Shown piece by piece: positions 1-10,679 of a stretch of DNA of 64,000 nt. A program made the position numbers and the translations under genes. The first letter of the stretch is position 1; each line of letters starts with the position of its first letter. The notes beneath the pieces are model-generated. The model saw only the letters and a program-made list of their open reading frames with translations. It ran no database searches and was not told the origin of the DNA. Source of the DNA: a virus; IMG/VR virus record IMGVR_UViG_3300022879_000002, positions 32,001-96,000 of that record. One strand, given 5' to 3'.

Positions 1-2
1 TT

Positions 3-89
3 TCTGATGATGAATTAGAAATTGCTAAGAAATATATTGAAGCATTACAAAAACTTAATAAGAAGTCTGAGAATAAATCCAAAGGATGA
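3..89 (+). CDS. 3' end of a gene entering from the left (SDDELEIAKKYIEALQKLNKKSENKSKG*), possibly an XRE regulator C-terminus
   Basis: Open frame from window edge to TGA at 87-89, followed by a terminator. Confidence 0.5.
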   Translation, partial: SDDELEIAKKYIEALQKLNKKSENKSKG

Positions 90-104
90 TCTCATCCTTT
101 TTTT
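81..104. terminator. Intrinsic terminator between convergent genes
   Basis: AAAGGATG-ATCT-CATCCTTT followed by a T run. Confidence 0.75.
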
Positions 105-134
105 ATTTATATAATATAATTCTTTTATCTAATT

Positions 135-761
135 TTAAGAAACAATTTCACCACTTGAATAGTGATATATGTATTCTCGTACATGTTCTCTAAACATTGT
201 GACTGTGTAATGCACTGTCCTTGGACTAACTCCGATTAAAGGAGCTACTTCATTTGTTGTTGTCTCTCTGTACATTAATGGGATCAGAAATGGATGGTAT
301 TTATCGATAACCCATGTTTTTGCGTACTCAATTGCATTATGTAGGTATATATAATCTTTTTTATGTAGAACATCTTTATTTGATACATCCAGAATGTCGA
401 TTAGCTTACTTCCATCATTATCTAACACATTCGAATCTAGATATGAAAACGAATAACCTGAAGTATCTCTTTTCTTCCTTGTTGCTGCGTTTATGCTTTT
501 AATCACTTCGTTTCTCATTATTGAGTAACAGTATGTAGAAAATTTACAATTCTTTGATGTATTAAATGTCTGTGCTGCTCTAGAGAAAGCATAATTACAG
601 TCACTTTCTATATCTTCATTTGTAATTGCTTTTGAGTTCTTAAATAGTTTTTCAACTTCAAATACTAACCCTTTATTTCTTTTGTATAACTCATCAAACG
701 CTAACTCATTATTATCATTTCTATATAACTCTACTAATTCCTCATTTGTTAATTTATCCAT
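135..761 (-). CDS. Phage sigma-70 family RNA polymerase sigma factor
   Basis: Region 2-like segment AFDELYKRNKGLV...AAQTFNTSKNCKFSTYCYSIMRNEV and C-terminal HTH (VAPLIGVSPRTV). Confidence 0.8.
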   Translation of the reverse strand: MDKLTNEELVELYRNDNNELAFDELYKRNKGLVFEVEKLFKNSKAITNEDIESDCNYAFSRAAQTFNTSKNCKFSTYCYSIMRNEVIKSINAATRKKRDTSGYSFSYLDSNVLDNDGSKLIDILDVSNKDVLHKKDYIYLHNAIEYAKTWVIDKYHPFLIPLMYRETTTNEVAPLIGVSPRTVHYTVTMFREHVREYIYHYSSGEIVS

Positions 762-773
762 TCAATTAATCCT

Positions 774-1118
774 CTATGTATAGTATCTCTCTTTATTATT
801 TAGAAGCCTACCCTTGCTTGGTAATCTTACACTCAATATACCATTTATTTTCAACAAATCATCTTTCTCTTTATATGTATCGATAAATAAAACATTAAGT
901 ACTGGTGATATATATGTAATGGAACCTAATTCAGTTAATTTTTCAAGTACTCTATTATCTCTATATGTAACTATAAATTGATGCGTTGATTTTCTATTGT
1001 CATGCACCCCACTACTCCAATCTCTCGCCATCTGATTCACTCCTTTTATATAATGTTTAAACAAGTCTCTCTCGCAAGAGTACCTATTCAATATAAGCAC
1101 TCTTGCTATAAATGACAT
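774..1118 (-). CDS. Hypothetical protein, possibly subtilisin-propeptide/I9-inhibitor-like fold
   Basis: FIVTY...LGSITYISPVLNVLFIDT...GILSVR pattern resembles S8 prodomains; likely start MARDW. Confidence 0.35.
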   Translation of the reverse strand: MSFIARVLILNRYSCERDLFKHYIKGVNQMARDWSSGVHDNRKSTHQFIVTYRDNRVLEKLTELGSITYISPVLNVLFIDTYKEKDDLLKINGILSVRLPSKGRLLNNKERYYT

Positions 1119-1322
1119 TTATTTCTGCTTCCAGATACTCTCATTAATCGATTCAGCTTCATTTTCAATACTGTACCAATCATTAGCTAAGCCAAGATTA
1201 ATTTCTGCCATTTCCTGATACCCTATTTCCATCTGTTTGATCATTGCTTCTCTAAGCTTGTCCTGTATTCTGGAGTCTTCATTTAGCTGCTTTATTTCTT
1301 CAATCATTCCACCCATCTCCAT
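1119..1322 (-). CDS. Orphan MazE/NdoAI C-terminal mimic (YosL-like antitoxin)
   Basis: MEIGYQEMAEINLGLANDWYSIENEAE aligns by eye with B. subtilis NdoAI MRRGYMEMAKINLNISSEAHFAECEAE; no N-terminal RHH domain. Confidence 0.8.
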   Translation of the reverse strand: MEMGGMIEEIKQLNEDSRIQDKLREAMIKQMEIGYQEMAEINLGLANDWYSIENEAESINESIWKQK

Positions 1323-1429
1323 TCATTATTATGTATTTATTACATTAGTCACCGACAATTTGTTACATAACAACTTCACTACTGATCGAGAATGGATTTA
1401 CATTCCTTTATTTCTACTAGAATATGTAT

Positions 1430-1473
1430 ATCTTACTATATTAAGTTCAAATAATCAATAGTTTTATGTATTT
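1430..1473 (-). promoter_or_regulatory. sigmaA-type promoter with upstream AAATACATAA motif
   Basis: Minus strand AAATACATAA-5-TTGATT-17-TAAGAT upstream of the MazE-like gene. Confidence 0.65.
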
Positions 1474-1497
1474 ATTTATATAATATTCCACTATTAT

Positions 1498-1659
1498 TTA
1501 TTCCAAAGACATATAGTCATCTTGGATTTCATTCAGAAAATCATTAATTTTTTCTAATAAATGATTTTTAATACCTGCGTTATTCATCATCGAAAGTACT
1601 TCATCTAACAGCTCTACTGCTATCCCAAGTCGTTCCTCTACTAAATCTATTTCATCCAT
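1498..1659 (-). CDS. Small hypothetical protein (53 aa, not in ORF track)
   Basis: MDEIDLVEERLGIAVELLDEV..., RBS AGGAG upstream; stop abuts the 1480-1497 palindrome. Confidence 0.6.
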   Translation of the reverse strand: MDEIDLVEERLGIAVELLDEVLSMMNNAGIKNHLLEKINDFLNEIQDDYMSLE

Positions 1660-1684
1660 AATTAATTCTCCTATGATTTTATTT

Positions 1685-2113
1685 TCACTTCATCATCCGA
1701 TGCATTTGAAATATATGATTAAATGAACGTGCATCTTTTTCTGTGATTCCCAAACTGTGTTCAACACCATGCACTTTAATTAGTACTGGAATCTCACCTT
1801 TTGCATTTGGATGTAACTCATACATAAAATCATCAATGTGAGTTGAAGTTTCGTAAGTTTCATTTTCATCTTTGTACATTTTTAAGCTCTCTTCTAGCAA
1901 TTTCACTTTATTAGTTAATGGTGTTAAGTTTACTTGTTGAAGATATTTAACTAAGAAATAACCACTAAAACCTTCTAAGAACACAACTTGCGAACCACTC
2001 GAAGAAGTAAACTCATCACCTTTGCAAGTCCAAATTTGACCTTTGTAGTGTTCTGCTTCACCGCAAGTATGCATAACAACTTTATCGTCTTTTTTCAATG
2101 GTTCATTGCTCAC
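1685..2113 (-). CDS. Hypothetical phage protein
   Basis: 142 aa ORF in operon context. Confidence 0.6.
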   Translation of the reverse strand: MSNEPLKKDDKVVMHTCGEAEHYKGQIWTCKGDEFTSSSGSQVVFLEGFSGYFLVKYLQQVNLTPLTNKVKLLEESLKMYKDENETYETSTHIDDFMYELHPNAKGEIPVLIKVHGVEHSLGITEKDARSFNHIFQMHRMMK

Positions 2114-2562
2114 TCTTCATTTCCCCATTTCATGTGAATTTTTGATAATTGAAATCGCCTTGTCTAAAGGTACTTTTAGTAAATAGCATTGATAGCCAAG
2201 TTCTAATGTCCAAATTGTAGCTTCACTTAGTAACTTGTCCTTTTGAATTTCCTCTAACGATTGACCGTTATCTCTGCGATTTATATATTCTTCTATTGTC
2301 ATTATCTATGTCTCCTTAGAATTTTATTTTTCAGTTTCAATTGGTATATATTCGTCAATTTTCATATCCAATGTTTTTTCAGTGGAGATGATATTTCTAT
2401 CACTTACTTTGTTCATTGCATCTTCATAAGAATTAGCTTCCACTACCACCAATACTCTTTTGGTTATTTTTTGTTTAGCGATTATTTTATATAATGTCAT
2501 TAATTATTTCATCATCTCCTTCGCTACATCTTTCTAAATATTTAAATAATAGAGTGGTTTTA

Positions 2563-2826
2563 TTAAATTCCTTTGCGTATATTCCACGCCTGTATAGCTT
2601 CATCCCTACTTTCATAAAGATATACACCCATTGTTGCATCATCTACATCATAAGTGGCAATTGGACATCCTTCATTTTCTTCGTGAGCATGGTGTATTTT
2701 AAATGATAGCCCTGACCACGGATCTTTTTCGTATTCCTCATCACGTAAATTTCCTTCATCATCACTAATAACAAGTTGAACTTGTCCCCCACAAAACGGA
2801 CATGGTTTAAGTTTATGATTACTCAT
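2563..2826 (-). CDS. Lar family restriction alleviation protein
   Basis: N-terminal LKPCPFCGG and C-terminal EAIQAWNIR signatures. Confidence 0.8.
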   Translation of the reverse strand: MSNHKLKPCPFCGGQVQLVISDDEGNLRDEEYEKDPWSGLSFKIHHAHEENEGCPIATYDVDDATMGVYLYESRDEAIQAWNIRKGI

Positions 2827-2865
2827 CTCAATTGCTCCTTCGTTAAAAATTTTTCATTCTAAAAT

Positions 2866-3207
2866 CTAGCCTATATAAACATCTTCAAAAGCTGCTCTTT
2901 CATCAGATAGTTTCATATTAAAATCTTTAATCTTCTTAGTTAATGTATACTTTTTACACTCTCCACACCAAGCATATGGATATGTACTATTAACTTTATT
3001 TCCTAATTTATGTTCTATGTATTTGTTAAACTTATCAATGTCATGTTTTCGCCAAAAGAAAATCTTATTATACTCATATTGCTCTTCAAAACTTTTATCA
3101 TATTTAACTTCCATATCAGTACAAGTATCAACAGATCCTCCGTAAATTTCAAAACTCTCTTGAGGATGCGATTCGCTTATCCAGATATCGCCTAGCTTTA
3201 ATTTCAT
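2866..3207 (-). CDS. Hypothetical phage protein
   Basis: 113 aa ORF with RBS. Confidence 0.6.
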   Translation of the reverse strand: MKLKLGDIWISESHPQESFEIYGGSVDTCTDMEVKYDKSFEEQYEYNKIFFWRKHDIDKFNKYIEHKLGNKVNSTYPYAWCGECKKYTLTKKIKDFNMKLSDERAAFEDVYIG

Positions 3208-4037
3208 ACAAATATCCCCTTCCAGTGTATGTATTGTTAAAATCCTACGTACTTCATTAATATCTGAAATGGACGATAATCATTAGATATGTAGCGCATA
3301 TTACTTCCTACTTGCCATCCATTCTTATTACATTCTACAATGTTTTCATGTAGCTCAATTTCATTACTCGCTTTAAGAATCTTCTTTCCGTTAAATTTAT
3401 TAAACTCCATATATTTGTCCTCTGTTATGTATTATATTTTTGATAATTACGGATTTTATTTGCTTTAAGTATCAAGTATGTATTACTAATTTTAAATAAT
3501 ATCTATATATTATGTATTTATTAATATTTAACTTCCTTCACTACTCCAACACTTACCATGTACTTCGCATAGCAAATTGAATCGCAATATAAATTGGCAT
3601 CATCTATAAAGTATTCATCTTCTCTGGTGAGTTCATTTGAACATTCCTTATTTGCACAACAACCAATTACATTAATATCGTGATATTTATTCAGCTTCTT
3701 CACCCTCTCCAACATTACTGTTTTCTTTTAGTGGATTATACTCTTTTTGTAGTTCGAAATATTTGAATCCTGCTCCTACTTTAAGGTCTACTAATCGTTT
3801 AATTAACCAATCACATTCAGCAGTCCATGTAATCATAGTGTCATCATTATTAAGCATTGATCCTTTATCATACTTGTTGATAATCGTATCAAATGTGTTT
3901 CTTAAATTTGCAATATCCTTATTCATTTTTATCTCACCTTTATGTATATGTATTTATTTAACTTAAACTTTTATTGATGTGATATTGGCTCTTGTACCAT
4001 ACCACATCATTTTCTCACAAAGACAACATAACCAGCT

Positions 4038-4487
4038 TCACCCCTTAATTTTCCTCAGTACTTCATAACTTGGATAGTTCATATTTAAGTATTTTTTCAT
4101 CTCATCTATGTTAGATGCATTACCTGTTTCAATTATAGATAAATCTTCTGCATTATATAAAAAAATATTATTATGCATTAAAATTAAACTATAATCACCT
4201 CTACCATCAATCCTAATCATGTCACTCATATCAAACGAATTATTTTCAGATAAATAGTATTTTACTTCTGGTGTACGTTTTAAAATTTCAACTACCTCAC
4301 CATCTTCAGTTAATTCAGCAATCTCAACAAAATGGAAATCTGAGCATTCTGTTATTAACTTATTACCTCTTACATTAGTTACTTGTAGTCCATTAGTAGG
4401 TATTAACCTATCATATAGTGCTAATAATTCTTCTGGGCTATTATCCTGAATTACTACTTCAGACTGAATCTTTGCTACTATTGTCAT
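4038..4487 (-). CDS. Hypothetical protein, first gene after an SOS-boxed promoter
   Basis: 149 aa ORF, RBS AGGGGAG, promoter at 4556-4584. Confidence 0.6.
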   Translation of the reverse strand: MTIVAKIQSEVVIQDNSPEELLALYDRLIPTNGLQVTNVRGNKLITECSDFHFVEIAELTEDGEVVEILKRTPEVKYYLSENNSFDMSDMIRIDGRGDYSLILMHNNIFLYNAEDLSIIETGNASNIDEMKKYLNMNYPSYEVLRKIKG

Positions 4488-4555
4488 AATTATATACTCC
4501 CCCTTTTTTAATTAATTAGCTTATCTATGGTATAAATAGTTGCTTTATTAATACA

Positions 4556-4620
4556 ATTTTACCAATTGTCTAAAATATTGTCAATCTAAAAATGAAAACA
4601 TTTGTTCGTATTTTTGTTCG
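4556..4620 (-). promoter_or_regulatory. sigmaA promoter with adjacent LexA(DinR)-box-like sites
   Basis: Minus strand TTGACA-17-TAAAAT (4584-4556); CGAAC-AAAT-GTTTT at 4595-4608 and a weaker CGAAC-AAAA-ATACG at 4607-4620. Confidence 0.65.
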
Positions 4621-4763
4621 ATATTTTTTAAGAACATTTAAATTGTACTTTCCAAAGTATAATAATTTATATACTCTTAAAAAATATCAAATTCAATTAA
4701 TATATTTATATATTTATATGTATAAGAGAGCTGAATGATTAATTCATTCAGTCTTTCAGTTCT

Positions 4764-5753
4764 CTATATTTTAACCTCAAAATGACCATATTCATCCTGC
4801 ATAAAATCAAAATCCATTGTTTCTCTGATTCGTTGTAATTGAGGATACTCTTTATTATTAGAGGTTATAGTACTCAAATTATATTTTTTAACTAACTCGT
4901 CTACAATGATCAAATCAAAAACTCTCTCTCCTTTTTGATTCATCCATTCATTTGCATAGTACATCATTCCACTAATTTCAATAGTTGTTGCAGTTACATT
5001 ACTATCTTCAAATGTATCCTTTATTCTCTGCATAATGATTGTACTAATCATAGAAGATGTTATACGAACATCATTGTCTTTACCTAGTCTATTTTTTCTA
5101 AAAATGTATTCACCATCAACTAATCGTGCCATTTTCCCACTAGGACTTTTTATTTCTGAAGTATTATAAGTTTTAATTAATAGATCATGAAGTTCTTTAG
5201 ATATTTCAATTTGTCTACTGTCTAAGTTTATTTCATCTGAAAGTACATTTAAAAAGTATTTATCATCTTTTGTAGTAATGTCATCCATTCTTAAATTTCT
5301 TATTTCAGAAAATGATGATCCAACAATTCCCTCAAACAATAGAAGTACAATAACCTTATCCCTGTTGTTATCCAGTAACTCAATTTTATTAAGAAGTTCT
5401 TCTCTTGTGTAATAATGTTTACCTGCGTTCCATACATAAGTAGAAACATACTCATCATTAATTACATCAACAATTGGATGAGTTGGTGAAGTACTATGCC
5501 CATTGTCTATAGCCCATGTAATATAGTTCTTAATAGTGTTGATAAATATAATTGCAGATCTTTTTGTTTGTCTTTTTGCTTGTCTAAATAACAAATCCAA
5601 CATGGAGTTATCCATATCATATAAATCTGTTTCATGTTTTCTTTCAAATGATTCAGTACGATTGAATATCGAGTAGTAAGTTTTCTTAGATGAATCAGAT
5701 AAATTCAATGTTTCAAGAAATGATTTCTTGTATTCCTCGTTATACATAATCAC
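4764..5753 (-). CDS. YopR/MrpR-like repressor with a catalytically degenerate tyrosine-recombinase fold
   Basis: SAM-like N-terminus, LLFEGIVGSSFSEIRNL lacks the catalytic Arg and no HxxR is present; third gene of a YopP/Q/R-like operon. Confidence 0.75.
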   Translation of the reverse strand: MIMYNEEYKKSFLETLNLSDSSKKTYYSIFNRTESFERKHETDLYDMDNSMLDLLFRQAKRQTKRSAIIFINTIKNYITWAIDNGHSTSPTHPIVDVINDEYVSTYVWNAGKHYYTREELLNKIELLDNNRDKVIVLLLFEGIVGSSFSEIRNLRMDDITTKDDKYFLNVLSDEINLDSRQIEISKELHDLLIKTYNTSEIKSPSGKMARLVDGEYIFRKNRLGKDNDVRITSSMISTIIMQRIKDTFEDSNVTATTIEISGMMYYANEWMNQKGERVFDLIIVDELVKKYNLSTITSNNKEYPQLQRIRETMDFDFMQDEYGHFEVKI

Positions 5754-7090
5754 TTCACGCCTTTCTTATACATATCTGTAAATAACTTAATCAATGCTTT
5801 TCGGTCTTTAGCATTTAATTTCATTTTCCCACTAACTATCTTGCTCAACTTAGATTCAGTATTATGGAATTCGTTTATATCTATAATATCTTCAATTTTC
5901 TCAAACGGTATATTATCTTCATTCATTAACTTGATTAAATATAGATGTCCTTCAAACACATCAGCATCAAAAAGTAGACTGTTATCACTGACATTATAGT
6001 TTTTATAAATTCCGAATAGGTACACTAGATATTCATTTATTGCTTTTGCAAGCTTTCTTGCGTCTAATATACTGTCTAATTTAAATATATTATTTATTTG
6101 CGTATTAATTATTTTATAAGTAGTAAAATCACTACCTTTTATTGATGACTTAGCATCACTAGCTGATGTTATTCTATTCTTTAGTTGTCCTTCTACTTTT
6201 AAAATATTCACAACTTCATTCGAATATGATTTATTATCTAGTTCTTCAACACGACTTCTTGATAACGGAGTATGTTTGTCTAGATCAACTTGATATCTTT
6301 TAACTTCCGCATCTGACTTATTTGAAATTGTTATTGGGAAAGATCCTTTTATATTAGAGTCTTTATTATAAGCACTATAATTACCTAGTAGTCTATGCAT
6401 ACCGTCTACAATATCTAAAACAGTACCTTCATTAATTTTTAGTGTATTGTTTTTATCATCATAAATAAGTTCTACACCTTCTAAAGCAGTCATCTGATGT
6501 GCATTCAAAGTGATAGTAGTTGGTCTTAGTACACCTTTTAAAATTTCATTTCTTATCTGTGTAATTTTACTTTGATAAATAATAGGTTTTTCAATTTCTA
6601 CACCAAAGCGAACAACTTTCTTCATACCTCGTTGCACATTAGCATTGTAATCCAGTTTACCTGATTTATATAATCTAGCTAATTCTTTTCTTGTAAGGGT
6701 TGCATTGTAATAACCGTCACCTAAATCAGTTACATTATGAATTGTCATTGGGAAATCTATAATATCTGTTGATGAAGAACCTACGAATTGGTATCCTCCA
6801 ATTTCTTTCTGTTCACGTTCAGTGAACCACTCATTCATCCATTCACTCTGGTTCATTCCTAATTTAACTACTAATTGCTGCCCAAATAGCGCAATCTCTT
6901 CAAAATCTAATTTACTTACATTATTAACATTATTAAATAAGGAATAAATCTTAGCACTTTCAATACCATGTTTCATTTTTAGGTGTTCAACAATTAAATC
7001 TACTTCATCTTTGTCTACATTAGATGAGAATGCATTAATTAAACTTTTAACTTCAATCTCTAATTGTTCATTATCTTTACCTAATTTCAT
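5750..7090 (-). CDS. YopQ-like DGQHR/DndB-domain protein
   Basis: IVDGMHRL motif, 446 aa, between two integrase-fold genes as in SPbeta. Confidence 0.75.
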   Translation of the reverse strand: MKLGKDNEQLEIEVKSLINAFSSNVDKDEVDLIVEHLKMKHGIESAKIYSLFNNVNNVSKLDFEEIALFGQQLVVKLGMNQSEWMNEWFTEREQKEIGGYQFVGSSSTDIIDFPMTIHNVTDLGDGYYNATLTRKELARLYKSGKLDYNANVQRGMKKVVRFGVEIEKPIIYQSKITQIRNEILKGVLRPTTITLNAHQMTALEGVELIYDDKNNTLKINEGTVLDIVDGMHRLLGNYSAYNKDSNIKGSFPITISNKSDAEVKRYQVDLDKHTPLSRSRVEELDNKSYSNEVVNILKVEGQLKNRITSASDAKSSIKGSDFTTYKIINTQINNIFKLDSILDARKLAKAINEYLVYLFGIYKNYNVSDNSLLFDADVFEGHLYLIKLMNEDNIPFEKIEDIIDINEFHNTESKLSKIVSGKMKLNAKDRKALIKLFTDMYKKGVK

Positions 7091-7153
7091 TAATTTCCCT
7101 CCCTTAATTACAAGAGATATTTTATCATCTAGTAATTAATTTTTCATTAGATA

Positions 7154-8206
7154 TTACATATTTTTTTGCTTATTTTTTATTTTATTATTTAAAAGTAGAA
7201 GCATTTCTGGTCGCATTTCGTTTAAAGCTTCTAAAAGCAACTCATGTGATACTGTTTTATAAGCATCATCTTCTGTATTCATTTTAGCTGAAATTATACC
7301 TGTTACATTTAAGTTAGTTAACCTTAAATATCTCATTGTTGTATTAACATTACTATGTCTAGCCTTTTTCATTGCAGTATCAATACAGTTGTTATTATTC
7401 AAGTAACACATAGTCACAGCTAATTTTTTAAAAGAGTGGAAAGAATATCTTACTCCAGTCTTATTTATAATTTCATTTCCTCTATCCATCATACCAGTTA
7501 ATTGTTTATATGTTAGAGTGAATAATTTTTGATCATTTCCTAAATCTTTTAATTGTAAAAGTTCTTCATACAATTCTTTATTTATTTTATCTATCCACTC
7601 TTTATTACCTTTTCCTTTATTACTACCATGTGATTTCATTATTACTCCATCTTCAACTACAGTAAAGTTACTCCACTTCAGCTCTAACAACTCTGTAGCT
7701 CTTAATGCTGTCTCAATTGCTAATTTGATTATTAATTGTTTTTCTAACCCTTGATCCTCTCCTTTAAAATAAGAAGAATATTCCATCGCTAAATCAAATG
7801 GTATCATTTCAATCTCTTCTCTTGTATCAGGAAAGAATTTAAGTAGTGATAGCTTATTTACATCATAAGAAATTATATCCCATGCAGCTAAAAACTCAAT
7901 GAACTTTTTTATTACCGAGATGTGTTTATTTATTGTTGAATTTTTGTGCTTCGGTTCATCTTCGTTATTTATTTCTTCATGTAATGTATTGAAGTATTCT
8001 TTTAATACATGTACAGTCATACCTTCAATATCAGAAACAGTTATAAATTTAAAGTCACTCTTATTTAATATATCTTTAAATAATTTATTTAAGCTGCTTT
8101 TATAACTCTTATAACTGTGAATTGAATTTGATTTGTATTCATTTAAGAAAGCTTCAATATGATCATAGATATAATTATCCATCTTAATTGTATTCAAAGC
8201 TACCAC
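7154..8206 (-). CDS. YopP-like tyrosine recombinase-family protein
   Basis: ALRATEL (Arg), HSFKK (HxxR with Lys), ARHSNVNTTMRY (His...Tyr). Confidence 0.85.
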   Translation of the reverse strand: MVALNTIKMDNYIYDHIEAFLNEYKSNSIHSYKSYKSSLNKLFKDILNKSDFKFITVSDIEGMTVHVLKEYFNTLHEEINNEDEPKHKNSTINKHISVIKKFIEFLAAWDIISYDVNKLSLLKFFPDTREEIEMIPFDLAMEYSSYFKGEDQGLEKQLIIKLAIETALRATELLELKWSNFTVVEDGVIMKSHGSNKGKGNKEWIDKINKELYEELLQLKDLGNDQKLFTLTYKQLTGMMDRGNEIINKTGVRYSFHSFKKLAVTMCYLNNNNCIDTAMKKARHSNVNTTMRYLRLTNLNVTGIISAKMNTEDDAYKTVSHELLLEALNEMRPEMLLLLNNKIKNKQKNM

Positions 8207-8238
8207 TACGACATCCCCCTTGTACTCTTATTATTACC

Positions 8239-8281
8239 AGTATAAAGGAAAACAAACAACAAGTAAAGTAATTATGTATTT
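8239..8281 (-). promoter_or_regulatory. Promoter of the repressor operon with AAATACATAA motif
   Basis: Minus strand AAATACATAA-4-TTTACT-17-TATACT. Confidence 0.65.
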
Positions 8282-10679
8282 ATTTTATTAATTACTTTTA
8301 TAAAATGTTCCTTTTATCTAACCTTTTAACATTAACTCAATCTCAATCAATTCCAATTGAACCTTTTTATTCTCGAGAAGAATGTATCAAACTTTGTCTC
8401 TAAAGCTTAAGTGTTTTCTTCTCTTCTTTAATAATATTTTGTATTTGTTATATTAAACATAGAATTAACTTTTGTAGTCCAAGAAGTTTAGTAAATCTTG
8501 TTGTGTGCGATTTGTAGGTATAACAACCGATATTGATTCTTTGATCAGGAAATTGATTGCTTCTAATTTTTCCTTATCTATGCCTATTAAGTGTACATTA
8601 CCATCAATCTCGATTAACAAACTCAATTGAGCGTCTTGAATGTCTATTCTCATTATTCCACCTTCTTGTTAATGGTTAATTATTATGTTACTAAAAATGA
8701 ATATTAATAAATCCAATTTTTATCATTCTACATACGTCCATATTTCTATATTTAAACAGCTTATATTTGTCCGATGAGATAAATGCTCCAAAGGTAATCC
8801 TAATTTCTTTATTATTCTTTGTCCATATGCTAATTTGTATGCTATTCATCCCCTCTCTATAATACTTACCTTTTATTTGATATTAGATCTTATTCATTCT
8901 AAACCAGTCGTGTGAATACCATTCTAATTTCCCCAAATCATTCTCTACTAACACTTCTCCGTAAGCTTGTTCTTTGACAATATATTTCTTATTTCGAGTT
9001 AAATTATGATTATTGTCATAACCGAAAACTTCATCTCCTGCTAAAACTTTCATAACATATACTCCATTTTCCTTTTTACATAAACTTGTCATACTACATC
9101 CTCCCAACGAGTTTTCATTATGTATTTAATAATATTTAGTTTTTATTAAACCTTAACATTACCTTTAAACCATTGAGACTCTTTAAATTCAACTTTGATT
9201 TCTTCAATAATTTCACTATGATTACAGGCAACTTCTTTCATTGTTAATCCATCAAAGTATGAAAGAAATTTAACCTTATCTTGATACGCTTTACAATTGT
9301 TTAGATTACCATTACATTTGCATTTGTCTTTATTAATAAAACCTTCTCCTTTTTCTTTCCCATAACAAAATTTTGAATTCACAACAAACTCAGCAAGCTT
9401 TTCAGTAATTCTAGTCATGTCAAATCCACTCCAATATTTATGTATTTGTGCAATAATTTAATGCTTCACTTTCAAACTCAAAATTTTGTTCTTTATCGCA
9501 CTTTGGGCATCTGATTCTATATTTTTTTATAAAATCTATATCTATTCCAGTATAGAATTCCTTATAAAACCTTCCTAAATAAGTCCATTTATGTATGCAT
9601 TCAGCTTGTCTTAATTCCTTTTCACGTTGAATTTCTCTTAATTCTCGTCTGTGTGAAAATTCACTTATCCATTTGAACACCGAACCATCTCCAGTTGTTT
9701 CAATTGATCCTTTAATCCAATATAATCATTTATTGCAAATAGTAAATTATCTAATTCTCTTTTAGAGTGTCGATTTGACAACTTACCATTTAAACGCACA
9801 CTCAGCTCATGCACTACCGTATACCTCTTTTCGTTAATAGATTCCTATTATTTAATCCTTTATACGTCTAATACGCCCCATTACATGTCCTTTGGAGGTC
9901 TTTATATAGCAATTCTCCCAACTATACTTACCTTCTCTATTTTTATATCTAATTGAATCCATCCCATATGACTGAGAAACAAACTCTATATACTTTCTTG
10001 GCTTAACGTCTAACACTAAATCTTTTCTTGAATTTAATTTCAATACTTTATAAATCGAACTGTTCTCAAATTCATCTACAACTTCTACATTGAACAAAGT
10101 AATCTTCCTTTCATTAATATATCTCTTTTATTTAAAAGTTACTTTTTCTCCTCGATTAATCATTTTAGTTAATAATAGTTCATCAATTAGTATCAAAACT
10201 CGTTTTAATTCCTCAGCATTAAACATACGTACATTTATTGATTTAACGGAAACATTTCCATCATAATCTTCCTCTTTCGTCAAAGGATTAAAATACAACA
10301 TTGGATTTGCTATACGCTTATAACCTACTGACCAGAGAGAGTTGTTATGTATCGTAATGCTTAGATCTAAATTTGCTATTTTATTACAGAATTCTAGATA
10401 TGTCATTTATAATTCTCCTTTATAATTTCTCCTCAGTTAAATTTCTAATAACTTCATATGTAATTATTTAATCAATTCAAAGGCATCATACTCTCCAGAA
10501 TAAACTCTATATGGTCGATTTAACTTGTTACTAAACAGTTCAACATATCCGCCCTCTCCATTATCTTCAGAAGAAACTAGATGTACAATTTCTCCATTTT
10601 CAAATGCCTTACCCCCAAAATAAATTTCATTTACATCTACAATTTTTGCTTTAATCATATAAAACTTCTCCCTTCTATC

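Follow-up and report, generated by a model that had tools for sequence, protein, structure and literature searches.

What would a temperate phage that carries no mazF gene do with the MazF-binding end of a MazE antitoxin? This question is raised by a short ORF (positions 1119–1322, minus strand) in a 64,000-nt stretch of viral DNA, hereafter called the window, which comprises bases 32001–96000 of the 121,875-bp IMG/VR record IMGVR_UViG_3300022879_000002; the record has direct terminal repeats and is rated complete by CheckV. A preliminary description, made from the letters of the window alone, regarded the product of this ORF as an orphan MazE mimic directed against host MazF. Sequence comparisons support this interpretation, and we consider it likely that the protein acts as a stand-alone MazE-type antitoxin, which would neutralize the MazF of the host and be expressed early, together with a phage sigma factor.

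The gene and the phage that carries it

The longest form of the ORF encodes 67 aa on the minus strand, as had been described, but its start has to be amended. In an alignment of 32 homologues Met6 (ATG at 1307) never varies, and most of these proteins begin with it, the five codons 5' of it being present in only few; moreover, a GGAG ribosome-binding site (1317–1320, minus strand), kept in 6/6 sequences, is located 9 nt 5' of this ATG. Thus, the product is probably a protein of 62 aa, encoded by 1119–1307 (residue numbers used here refer to the 67-aa frame). The 32 aligned homologues are 63–87% identical to the ORF. Pairwise comparisons of the gene with five relatives, with dS up to above 1, gave dN/dS values of 0.07–0.25: this is a real gene under purifying selection.

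The nearest homologues of the protein are encoded in Lysinibacillus genomes, and a syntenic prophage is present in a 4.9-Mb Lysinibacillus chromosome; the assignment of the host is based on these homologues. At 4764–8206 (minus strand) the window encodes a YopP-like integrase, a YopQ-like protein (with a weak match to DndB) and an MrpR/YopR-like repressor (4764–5753, with matches to PF22822 and PF22823), in the order of yopP-Q-R in SPbeta. This module, taken together with the Lysinibacillus homologues, identifies the virus as a temperate SPbeta-like phage of Lysinibacillus. The MazE-like gene (at 33.1 kb of the genome) lies 3.4 kb downstream of the module. In the GenBank phage collection, neither a tblastn search with the protein nor a megablast search with the first 8 kb of the window found anything.

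Two other loci of this genome deserve mention in their own right. An 87-aa protein encoded at 2563–2826 (minus strand) matches Lar (restriction alleviation, PF14354, E-value 1.3e-6) and is kept in the Lysinibacillus prophage. Outside the window (genome 119959–121729, locus L055 9962–11729), a YfkB-like radical-SAM gene adjoins a 201-aa ORF at the right end of the record, whose resemblance to a large serine recombinase is limited to the zinc-ribbon part; this locus may be the remnant of an integration site or a gene split by the ends of the record.

It had been noted that there is no mazF nearby and that no arbitrium genes are visible. The first statement can be extended from the neighbourhood to the whole genome: PF02452 (PemK/MazF) has no match in six-frame translations of the complete 121,875 bp, the predicted fold of the ORF downstream of the MazE-like gene is not that of MazF (see below), and PADLOC returned no match supporting a toxin-antitoxin pair. 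The second statement holds for AimR, as the profile PF22871 has no match in the complete genome, a B. subtilis control genome alone scoring over the family cut-off, and no large ORF of the phage has an AimR-like Pfam match; AimR is also absent from four related viral records, all of which are incomplete (20–88%). For SPbeta YopM (SroA) and YopN (SroB) no sequence match was found in the genome, a weak negative given the small size of these proteins. MazF has been found in about 80% of Bacillota reference species (bioRxiv 10.64898/2026.08.06.743204). The best 120 of our MazF protein search included only clostridial clusters.

Homology to the C-terminal region of MazE

The MazF-binding homology is encoded by 1137–1232 (minus strand), i.e. 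by codons 31–62, where the protein can be aligned with the phi3T protein AimX (8anv_C), with EndoAI (4me7_E) and with staphylococcal MazE (NCBIfam NF041459). The likeness of its motif GYQEMAEINL (residues 34–43 of 67) to GYMEMAKINL, on which the preliminary description had relied, is genuine in the sense that the two strings occupy aligned places in the phage protein and in the EndoAI chain 4me7_E. NF041459 matches residues 31–62 with an E-value of 2.6e-7 and 30.7 bits, far below the equivalog cut-off of 108. Used as a single sequence against the PDB, the protein retrieved AimX (8anv_C) with an E-value of 0.013 and EndoAI (4me7_E) with 0.11; a profile of the 32 homologues, compared with all PDB sequences, improved these values to 2.8e-7 and 6.5e-7, respectively, with no other match below an E-value of 0.5. 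Of the 33 database matches of the protein, which are 65–90% identical, 30 carry a precomputed assignment to Pfam family PF27083 (MazE_antitoxin_C), and one Lysinibacillus homologue bears the NCBI name "antitoxin". Judged by its sequence, the phage protein has the significant match to the MazE C-terminal region by which PF27083 is defined.

A tblastn search against one genome per species yielded 48 loci; each of the three that were examined more closely is the C-terminal end of a ribbon-helix-helix antitoxin encoded in a canonical alr-mazE-mazF locus, and the homology to chromosomal MazE begins at about residue 19 of the phage protein. It is restricted to the C-terminal region of MazE, in agreement with the earlier claim that only the MazF-binding C-terminal part has been kept. 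The similarity to SPbeta YosL (BLASTP E-value 1e-5) likewise covers only residues 71–110 of YosL. With YosL as a query against six-frame translations of the phage genome, the sole match was the ORF discussed here, and the family profile detected no second copy in the genome. M14, Y18, E20 and M21 of AimX represent contacts common to AimX, MazE and YosL (Zamora-Caballero et al., PMC10769878). They align with M31, Y35, E37 and M38 of the phage protein, three of which are invariant among the 32 homologues, while E37 is conserved in at least 90% of them.

In the AlphaFold2 model (pLDDT 91.8) the protein forms one long helix (residues 3–66) with no beta strand, which implies that it contains no ribbon-helix-helix domain. 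A Pfam search of the protein gave no match other than a weak DUF, and a Foldseek search with the model found no match, as expected for one helix. The conserved DNA upstream of the gene is non-coding. The reported lack of a DNA-binding domain is therefore upheld, and, according to the model, the protein does not classify as a canonical type II MazE, which is characterized by an N-terminal domain of the ribbon-helix-helix or AbrB type.

An exhaustive profile search collected 96 cluster representatives at E-values up to 0.001. They comprise four forms: ribbon-helix-helix MazE proteins, YosL-type fusions, other N-terminal fusions and many stand-alone proteins of 41–75 aa. One stand-alone protein (P0053) is encoded upstream of nrdI, i.e. 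in the position of yosL, and one precedes a PemK gene. Proteins sharing the whole 62-aa architecture are narrowly distributed: only two clusters at 50% identity match it over the entire length. In P0033 and P0034, both from short metagenome contigs, an N-terminal part that is AntA-like or unknown is joined to QAMIKQMEIGYQEMAEINLQIAN, after which the sequence ends; these may be fusions or reading frames cut by the ends of the contigs. Provirus G003 possesses a weakly matching PemK-family toxin gene (locus L061, 1468–2005; 110 aa, 31 bits), which is preceded by a gene for 65 aa; located ~80 kb from the MazE_C gene of the same provirus, this is probably a separate toxin-antitoxin pair.

The operon and its upstream region

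In all relatives the MazE-like gene lies behind about 180 nt of non-coding DNA and is the first of several genes, the last of which encodes a sigma-70-family factor of 208 aa (135–761, minus strand; Sigma70_r2, phrog_351), which is 59–84% identical in all of them and is the sole operon partner that all of them keep. In our phage the sigma gene is followed by a terminator-like hairpin (81–100, minus strand), and the second gene of the operon (774–1031, minus strand) encodes an 85-aa protein with a predicted ferredoxin-like fold.

The region 5' of the MazE-like gene, non-coding over 175 nt in our phage, is kept in five relatives (L056–L060), even where the identity of the protein drops to 65%; synteny and the promoter region are kept in a Lysinibacillus chromosome and four viral records. 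All elements of this region are on the minus strand. Box 1 (AAATACATAA, 1464–1473) is placed 5 nt upstream of the −35 hexamer of a promoter-like site, TTGATT-17 nt-TAAGAT (1430–1458; TTGATT at 1458–1453, TAAGAT at 1435–1430), which is kept in L056–L060. It is followed by a leader block of 32 nt (1344–1375), almost unchanged even in relatives with a 65% identical protein, and by box 2, a further copy of AAATACATAA (1329–1338) in the 5' leader, which is just upstream of the ribosome-binding site and contains UACAUA. The promoter-like hexamers agree with the sigma-A consensus in 8/12 positions, below the threshold of the consensus scan, which does not list them; we accept the site because it is kept in five relatives and because the genome contains ten other sites of the same box-promoter layout. 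The motif-linked promoter attributed to this gene can thus be described as a conserved, predicted promoter-like site preceded by the repeated motif.

The 5' part of the leader block can pair with box 2 in a predicted 11-bp stem, of which box 2 is the 3' arm. As all columns of this hairpin are nearly invariant and show no covariation, we do not claim it as a real structure. Rfam has no known RNA in positions 1–9000 of the window.

A repeated box and the MazF hexamer

The genome has ~65 copies of the box AAATACATAA, nearly all of them intergenic, and on both genome arms they point in the direction of transcription; TTTAWWTAAAWAAATACATAA is the extended consensus of these co-oriented sites. Their core, AATACATA, was counted 93 times, mostly between genes, versus about 23 times expected (both strands together). 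Besides the two copies at 1464–1473 and 1329–1338, examples in the window are found at 3947, 8273, 16430, 32823, 34646, 36351 and 60379. A pattern consisting of the box, 5–9 nt, TTGNNN, 16–18 nt and TANNNT has 11 sites in the genome, including that of the MazE-like gene, always co-oriented with the genes, while five control AT-rich octamers of similar abundance form 0–1 such promoter-like sites. The remaining copies are mostly between cistrons, many of them just 5' of a ribosome-binding site.

In SPbeta, the element SPBRE (ACAAATACAAAWAATATGTATA) was recovered near yonT (spbT), yonX, aimR, yopM, yopV, yorE, yorM, yorZ and yosX. MrpR ChAP-seq peaks have been reported for these genes and for yonP (Kohm et al., PMC10516654). 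SPBRE takes the same two positions as the phage box, a few nt 5' of the −35 hexamer or before the ribosome-binding site, and both contain AAATACA, but SPBRE is without the sense-strand UACAUA. The phage box resembles a half-site of SPBRE, the operator of MrpR. From these sequence features two readings are possible: the box could be an SPBRE-like operator for the MrpR-like repressor, or it could act at the RNA level as a MazF site, and the two roles may coexist.

For MazF of B. subtilis, L. monocytogenes and S. aureus, UACAUA has been reported as a strict cleavage site of six bases (bioRxiv 10.64898/2026.08.06.743204). In our phage the sense-strand TACATA exceeds expectation 2–3.5-fold genome-wide and 6-fold in intergenic regions (77 versus 12.0±3.4 expected; 8 on the antisense strand). 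Within ORFs, we counted 117 sense sites versus 65.8±7.1 expected from synonymous-codon shuffles (antisense 66 versus 56.7), and in both sets the antisense strand is at expectation; the depletion of MazF sites in ORFs that would be expected if the phage evaded MazF was looked for and not seen, the sites being enriched instead. Both arms of the genome take part, with 125 sense sites versus 36–45 expected in the early arm and 76 versus 33–36 in the late arm, the antisense strand being at expectation in each. A 4–5-fold sense excess was found in four related loci (L056 and L058–L060), and the early region of SPbeta has 84 sense sites versus 23–27 expected, again with the antisense strand at expectation. 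In SPP1, a lytic B. subtilis phage and our sole control, the sense strand is slightly depleted (5 versus 10–14 expected) and the antisense strand is at expectation.

The sites in SPbeta are mostly inside ORFs, have no flanking consensus and, in the larger of two regions, fall into three frames. A box that is only an operator and contains UACAUA by chance would agree with SPBRE, which takes the same places without this hexamer; against mere chance speaks the enrichment of the hexamer outside the boxes as well, and within SPbeta ORFs in all three frames. Part of the TACATA enrichment may be due to a function of the box at the DNA level. Transcripts of phi3T and SPbeta have been described as rich in UACAU (bioRxiv 10.1101/2023.04.27.537455), and the TACATA statistics sharpen this published observation. 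For a phage of this type, the sense-strand excess would also be a separate reason to need an inhibitor of MazF.

Possible function of the MazE-like protein

According to published work, YosL and AimX are inhibitors of MazF on which the lytic cycle depends (PMC10769878; PMC10516654), so that the background given in the preliminary description on the modulation of host MazF by these proteins was correct. We propose that in the phage protein a short N-terminal helix precedes the part of MazE/EndoAI that binds MazF with its C-terminus, and that the protein would be made from the first gene of an early operon, under a putative sigma-A-type promoter flanked by two boxes. Its helix, with M31, Y35, E37 and M38, would enter the groove in which the host MazF dimer binds RNA, in the manner of MazE, phi3T AimX and YosL and could thereby block cleavage at UACAUA. 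Since the transcripts of the phage are unusually rich in UACAUA, silencing of MazF may be a precondition for its lytic gene expression. We infer the binding to MazF, the timing of expression and the effect on the choice between lysis and lysogeny.

MazF need not be the only or even the main target of a MazE-like helix, as AimX also binds the phage protein phi3T_93 (PMC10769878). Hence the helix might mainly recognize a phage protein, either a groove former of the lysogeny module or the complex of the MrpR-like repressor, and work as an anti-repressor or switch independently of MazF. For such a target speaks that AimX contacts phi3T_93 (SroB) via the same helix (PMC10769878), that AimX proteins are anti-repressors in most other arbitrium systems (bioRxiv 10.1101/2025.11.23.689978), that the gene lies as close as 3.4 kb downstream of the MrpR/YopQ/YopP-like module, and that the box before it resembles a half-site of the SPBRE operator. 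However, no sequence homologue of YopN/phi3T_93 or of YopM was found in the genome, YosL binds MazF but not phi3T_93 despite having the same motif (PMC10769878), and the sense-strand enrichment of MazF sites points to MazF as the relevant host factor. On balance, we regard a phage-encoded main target as unlikely.

Far less probable is that the protein is the antitoxin of a phage toxin-antitoxin pair, serving addiction or abortive infection, with a cryptic toxin encoded next to it. The downstream ORF had looked toxin-like because in its longest form it has 114 aa, a MazF-like length, and its ATG at 1118 abuts the stop codon of the MazE-like gene (1119–1121), in the order antitoxin-then-toxin. 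Yet homologues of this ORF begin at its Met30, which leaves 85 aa, and the modelled protein (beta-alpha-beta-beta-alpha-beta) is nearest to subtilisin (I9) propeptides, with no family match and no MazF, PemK or CcdB among the structure matches listed. Moreover, the neighbour varies: only some of the relatives have the 85-aa gene, and its place next to the MazE-like gene is taken by the sigma gene in L057 and by a YorE-like gene in L056 and L060. We rejected a pair with this particular ORF on account of the variable neighbour and the non-MazF fold; the six-frame search for PemK and PADLOC, neither of which gave a match, also speak against such a pair. Finally, a functionless, decaying fragment of a captured host mazE, as might be suggested by the retention of only part of the cellular gene, is hardly credible in view of the low dN/dS for pairs with dS up to above 1, the constant length and start in 32 homologues, the conserved ribosome-binding site, promoter and leader, and the wide occurrence of stand-alone MazE_C proteins.

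If the protein does neutralize host MazF, a broader and decidedly tentative scheme can be imagined, which we consider possible but doubtful. With UACAUA placed in AAAUACAUAA at ~60 cistron junctions and leaders of the long early and late operons, and enriched in ORFs as well, host MazF could be an RNA-level gate on the lytic programme and the repressor-controlled MazE-like protein its key, together constituting an arbitrium-free sensor for lysis-lysogeny or for host physiology; modulation of MazF might then be the ancestral core of SPbeta-type circuits, to which arbitrium was added later.

The kind of protein described here is already known, AimX and YosL having been characterized, a Pfam family being available and the name "antitoxin" being in use at NCBI. 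What is new is the host genus Lysinibacillus, the genome without arbitrium genes and without a match to sroA or sroB, the operon link to a sigma factor, and the box with the MazF hexamer. Phage mimicry of MazE thereby extends beyond the arbitrium phages of Bacillus, the experimental cases so far being only phi3T and SPbeta. A lineage that has no AimR and keeps the MrpR-type module suggests that control of host MazF belongs to the core needs of this phage group and is not just an adjunct of peptide communication. An excess of the MazF hexamer on the sense strand, as seen in SPbeta and not in SPP1, could flag phages with a MazF-coupled life cycle.

Comparison with known systems

The closest counterpart is AimX of phi3T (8ANV chain C), which is likewise a short stand-alone MazE-like helix (~51 aa) with the same M/Y/E/M contacts, and which binds and inhibits MazF and favours lysis. 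The gene for AimX follows aimR-aimP, and the arbitrium peptide acts as its switch, whereas the genome analysed here has no AimR; compared with AimX, our protein has ~25 extra helical residues at the N-terminus, heads a sigma-factor operon and belongs to a phage of Lysinibacillus. YosL of SPbeta and phi3T is also a phage protein with a C-terminal MazE-like segment; it binds to MazF, its expression has to await derepression, and the induction of SPbeta c2 requires it. However, YosL has 117 aa, with an N-terminal domain of ~70 residues that our protein does not possess, and its gene is directly upstream of nrdI-nrdEF, while nrdE/nrdF of our phage are at 5.0–8.7 kb of the genome, ~24 kb from the MazE-like gene.

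B. subtilis MazE/EndoAI (NdoAI, 4ME7 chain E) and the chromosomal antitoxins of alr-mazE-mazF loci have a homologous C-terminal MazF-binding region, and some clostridial MazE proteins carry the identical string GYQEMAEINL. Cellular MazE has in addition an N-terminal ribbon-helix-helix domain for dimerization and DNA binding and is co-transcribed with mazF; neither feature applies to the phage protein. Staphylococcal MazE (NF041459, 54 positions) and short MazE proteins beside PemK (e.g. P0041) resemble it in length and in being without the canonical ribbon-helix-helix domain, but they are the cognate partners of a toxin, their genes directly preceding mazF. The same logic, an antitoxin-like part without its toxin directed against a toxin of the host, is found in the DarG-like orphan antitoxins of T4-like phages (PMC11825919), although the proteins and toxins involved are unrelated and the inhibition is enzymatic rather than steric.
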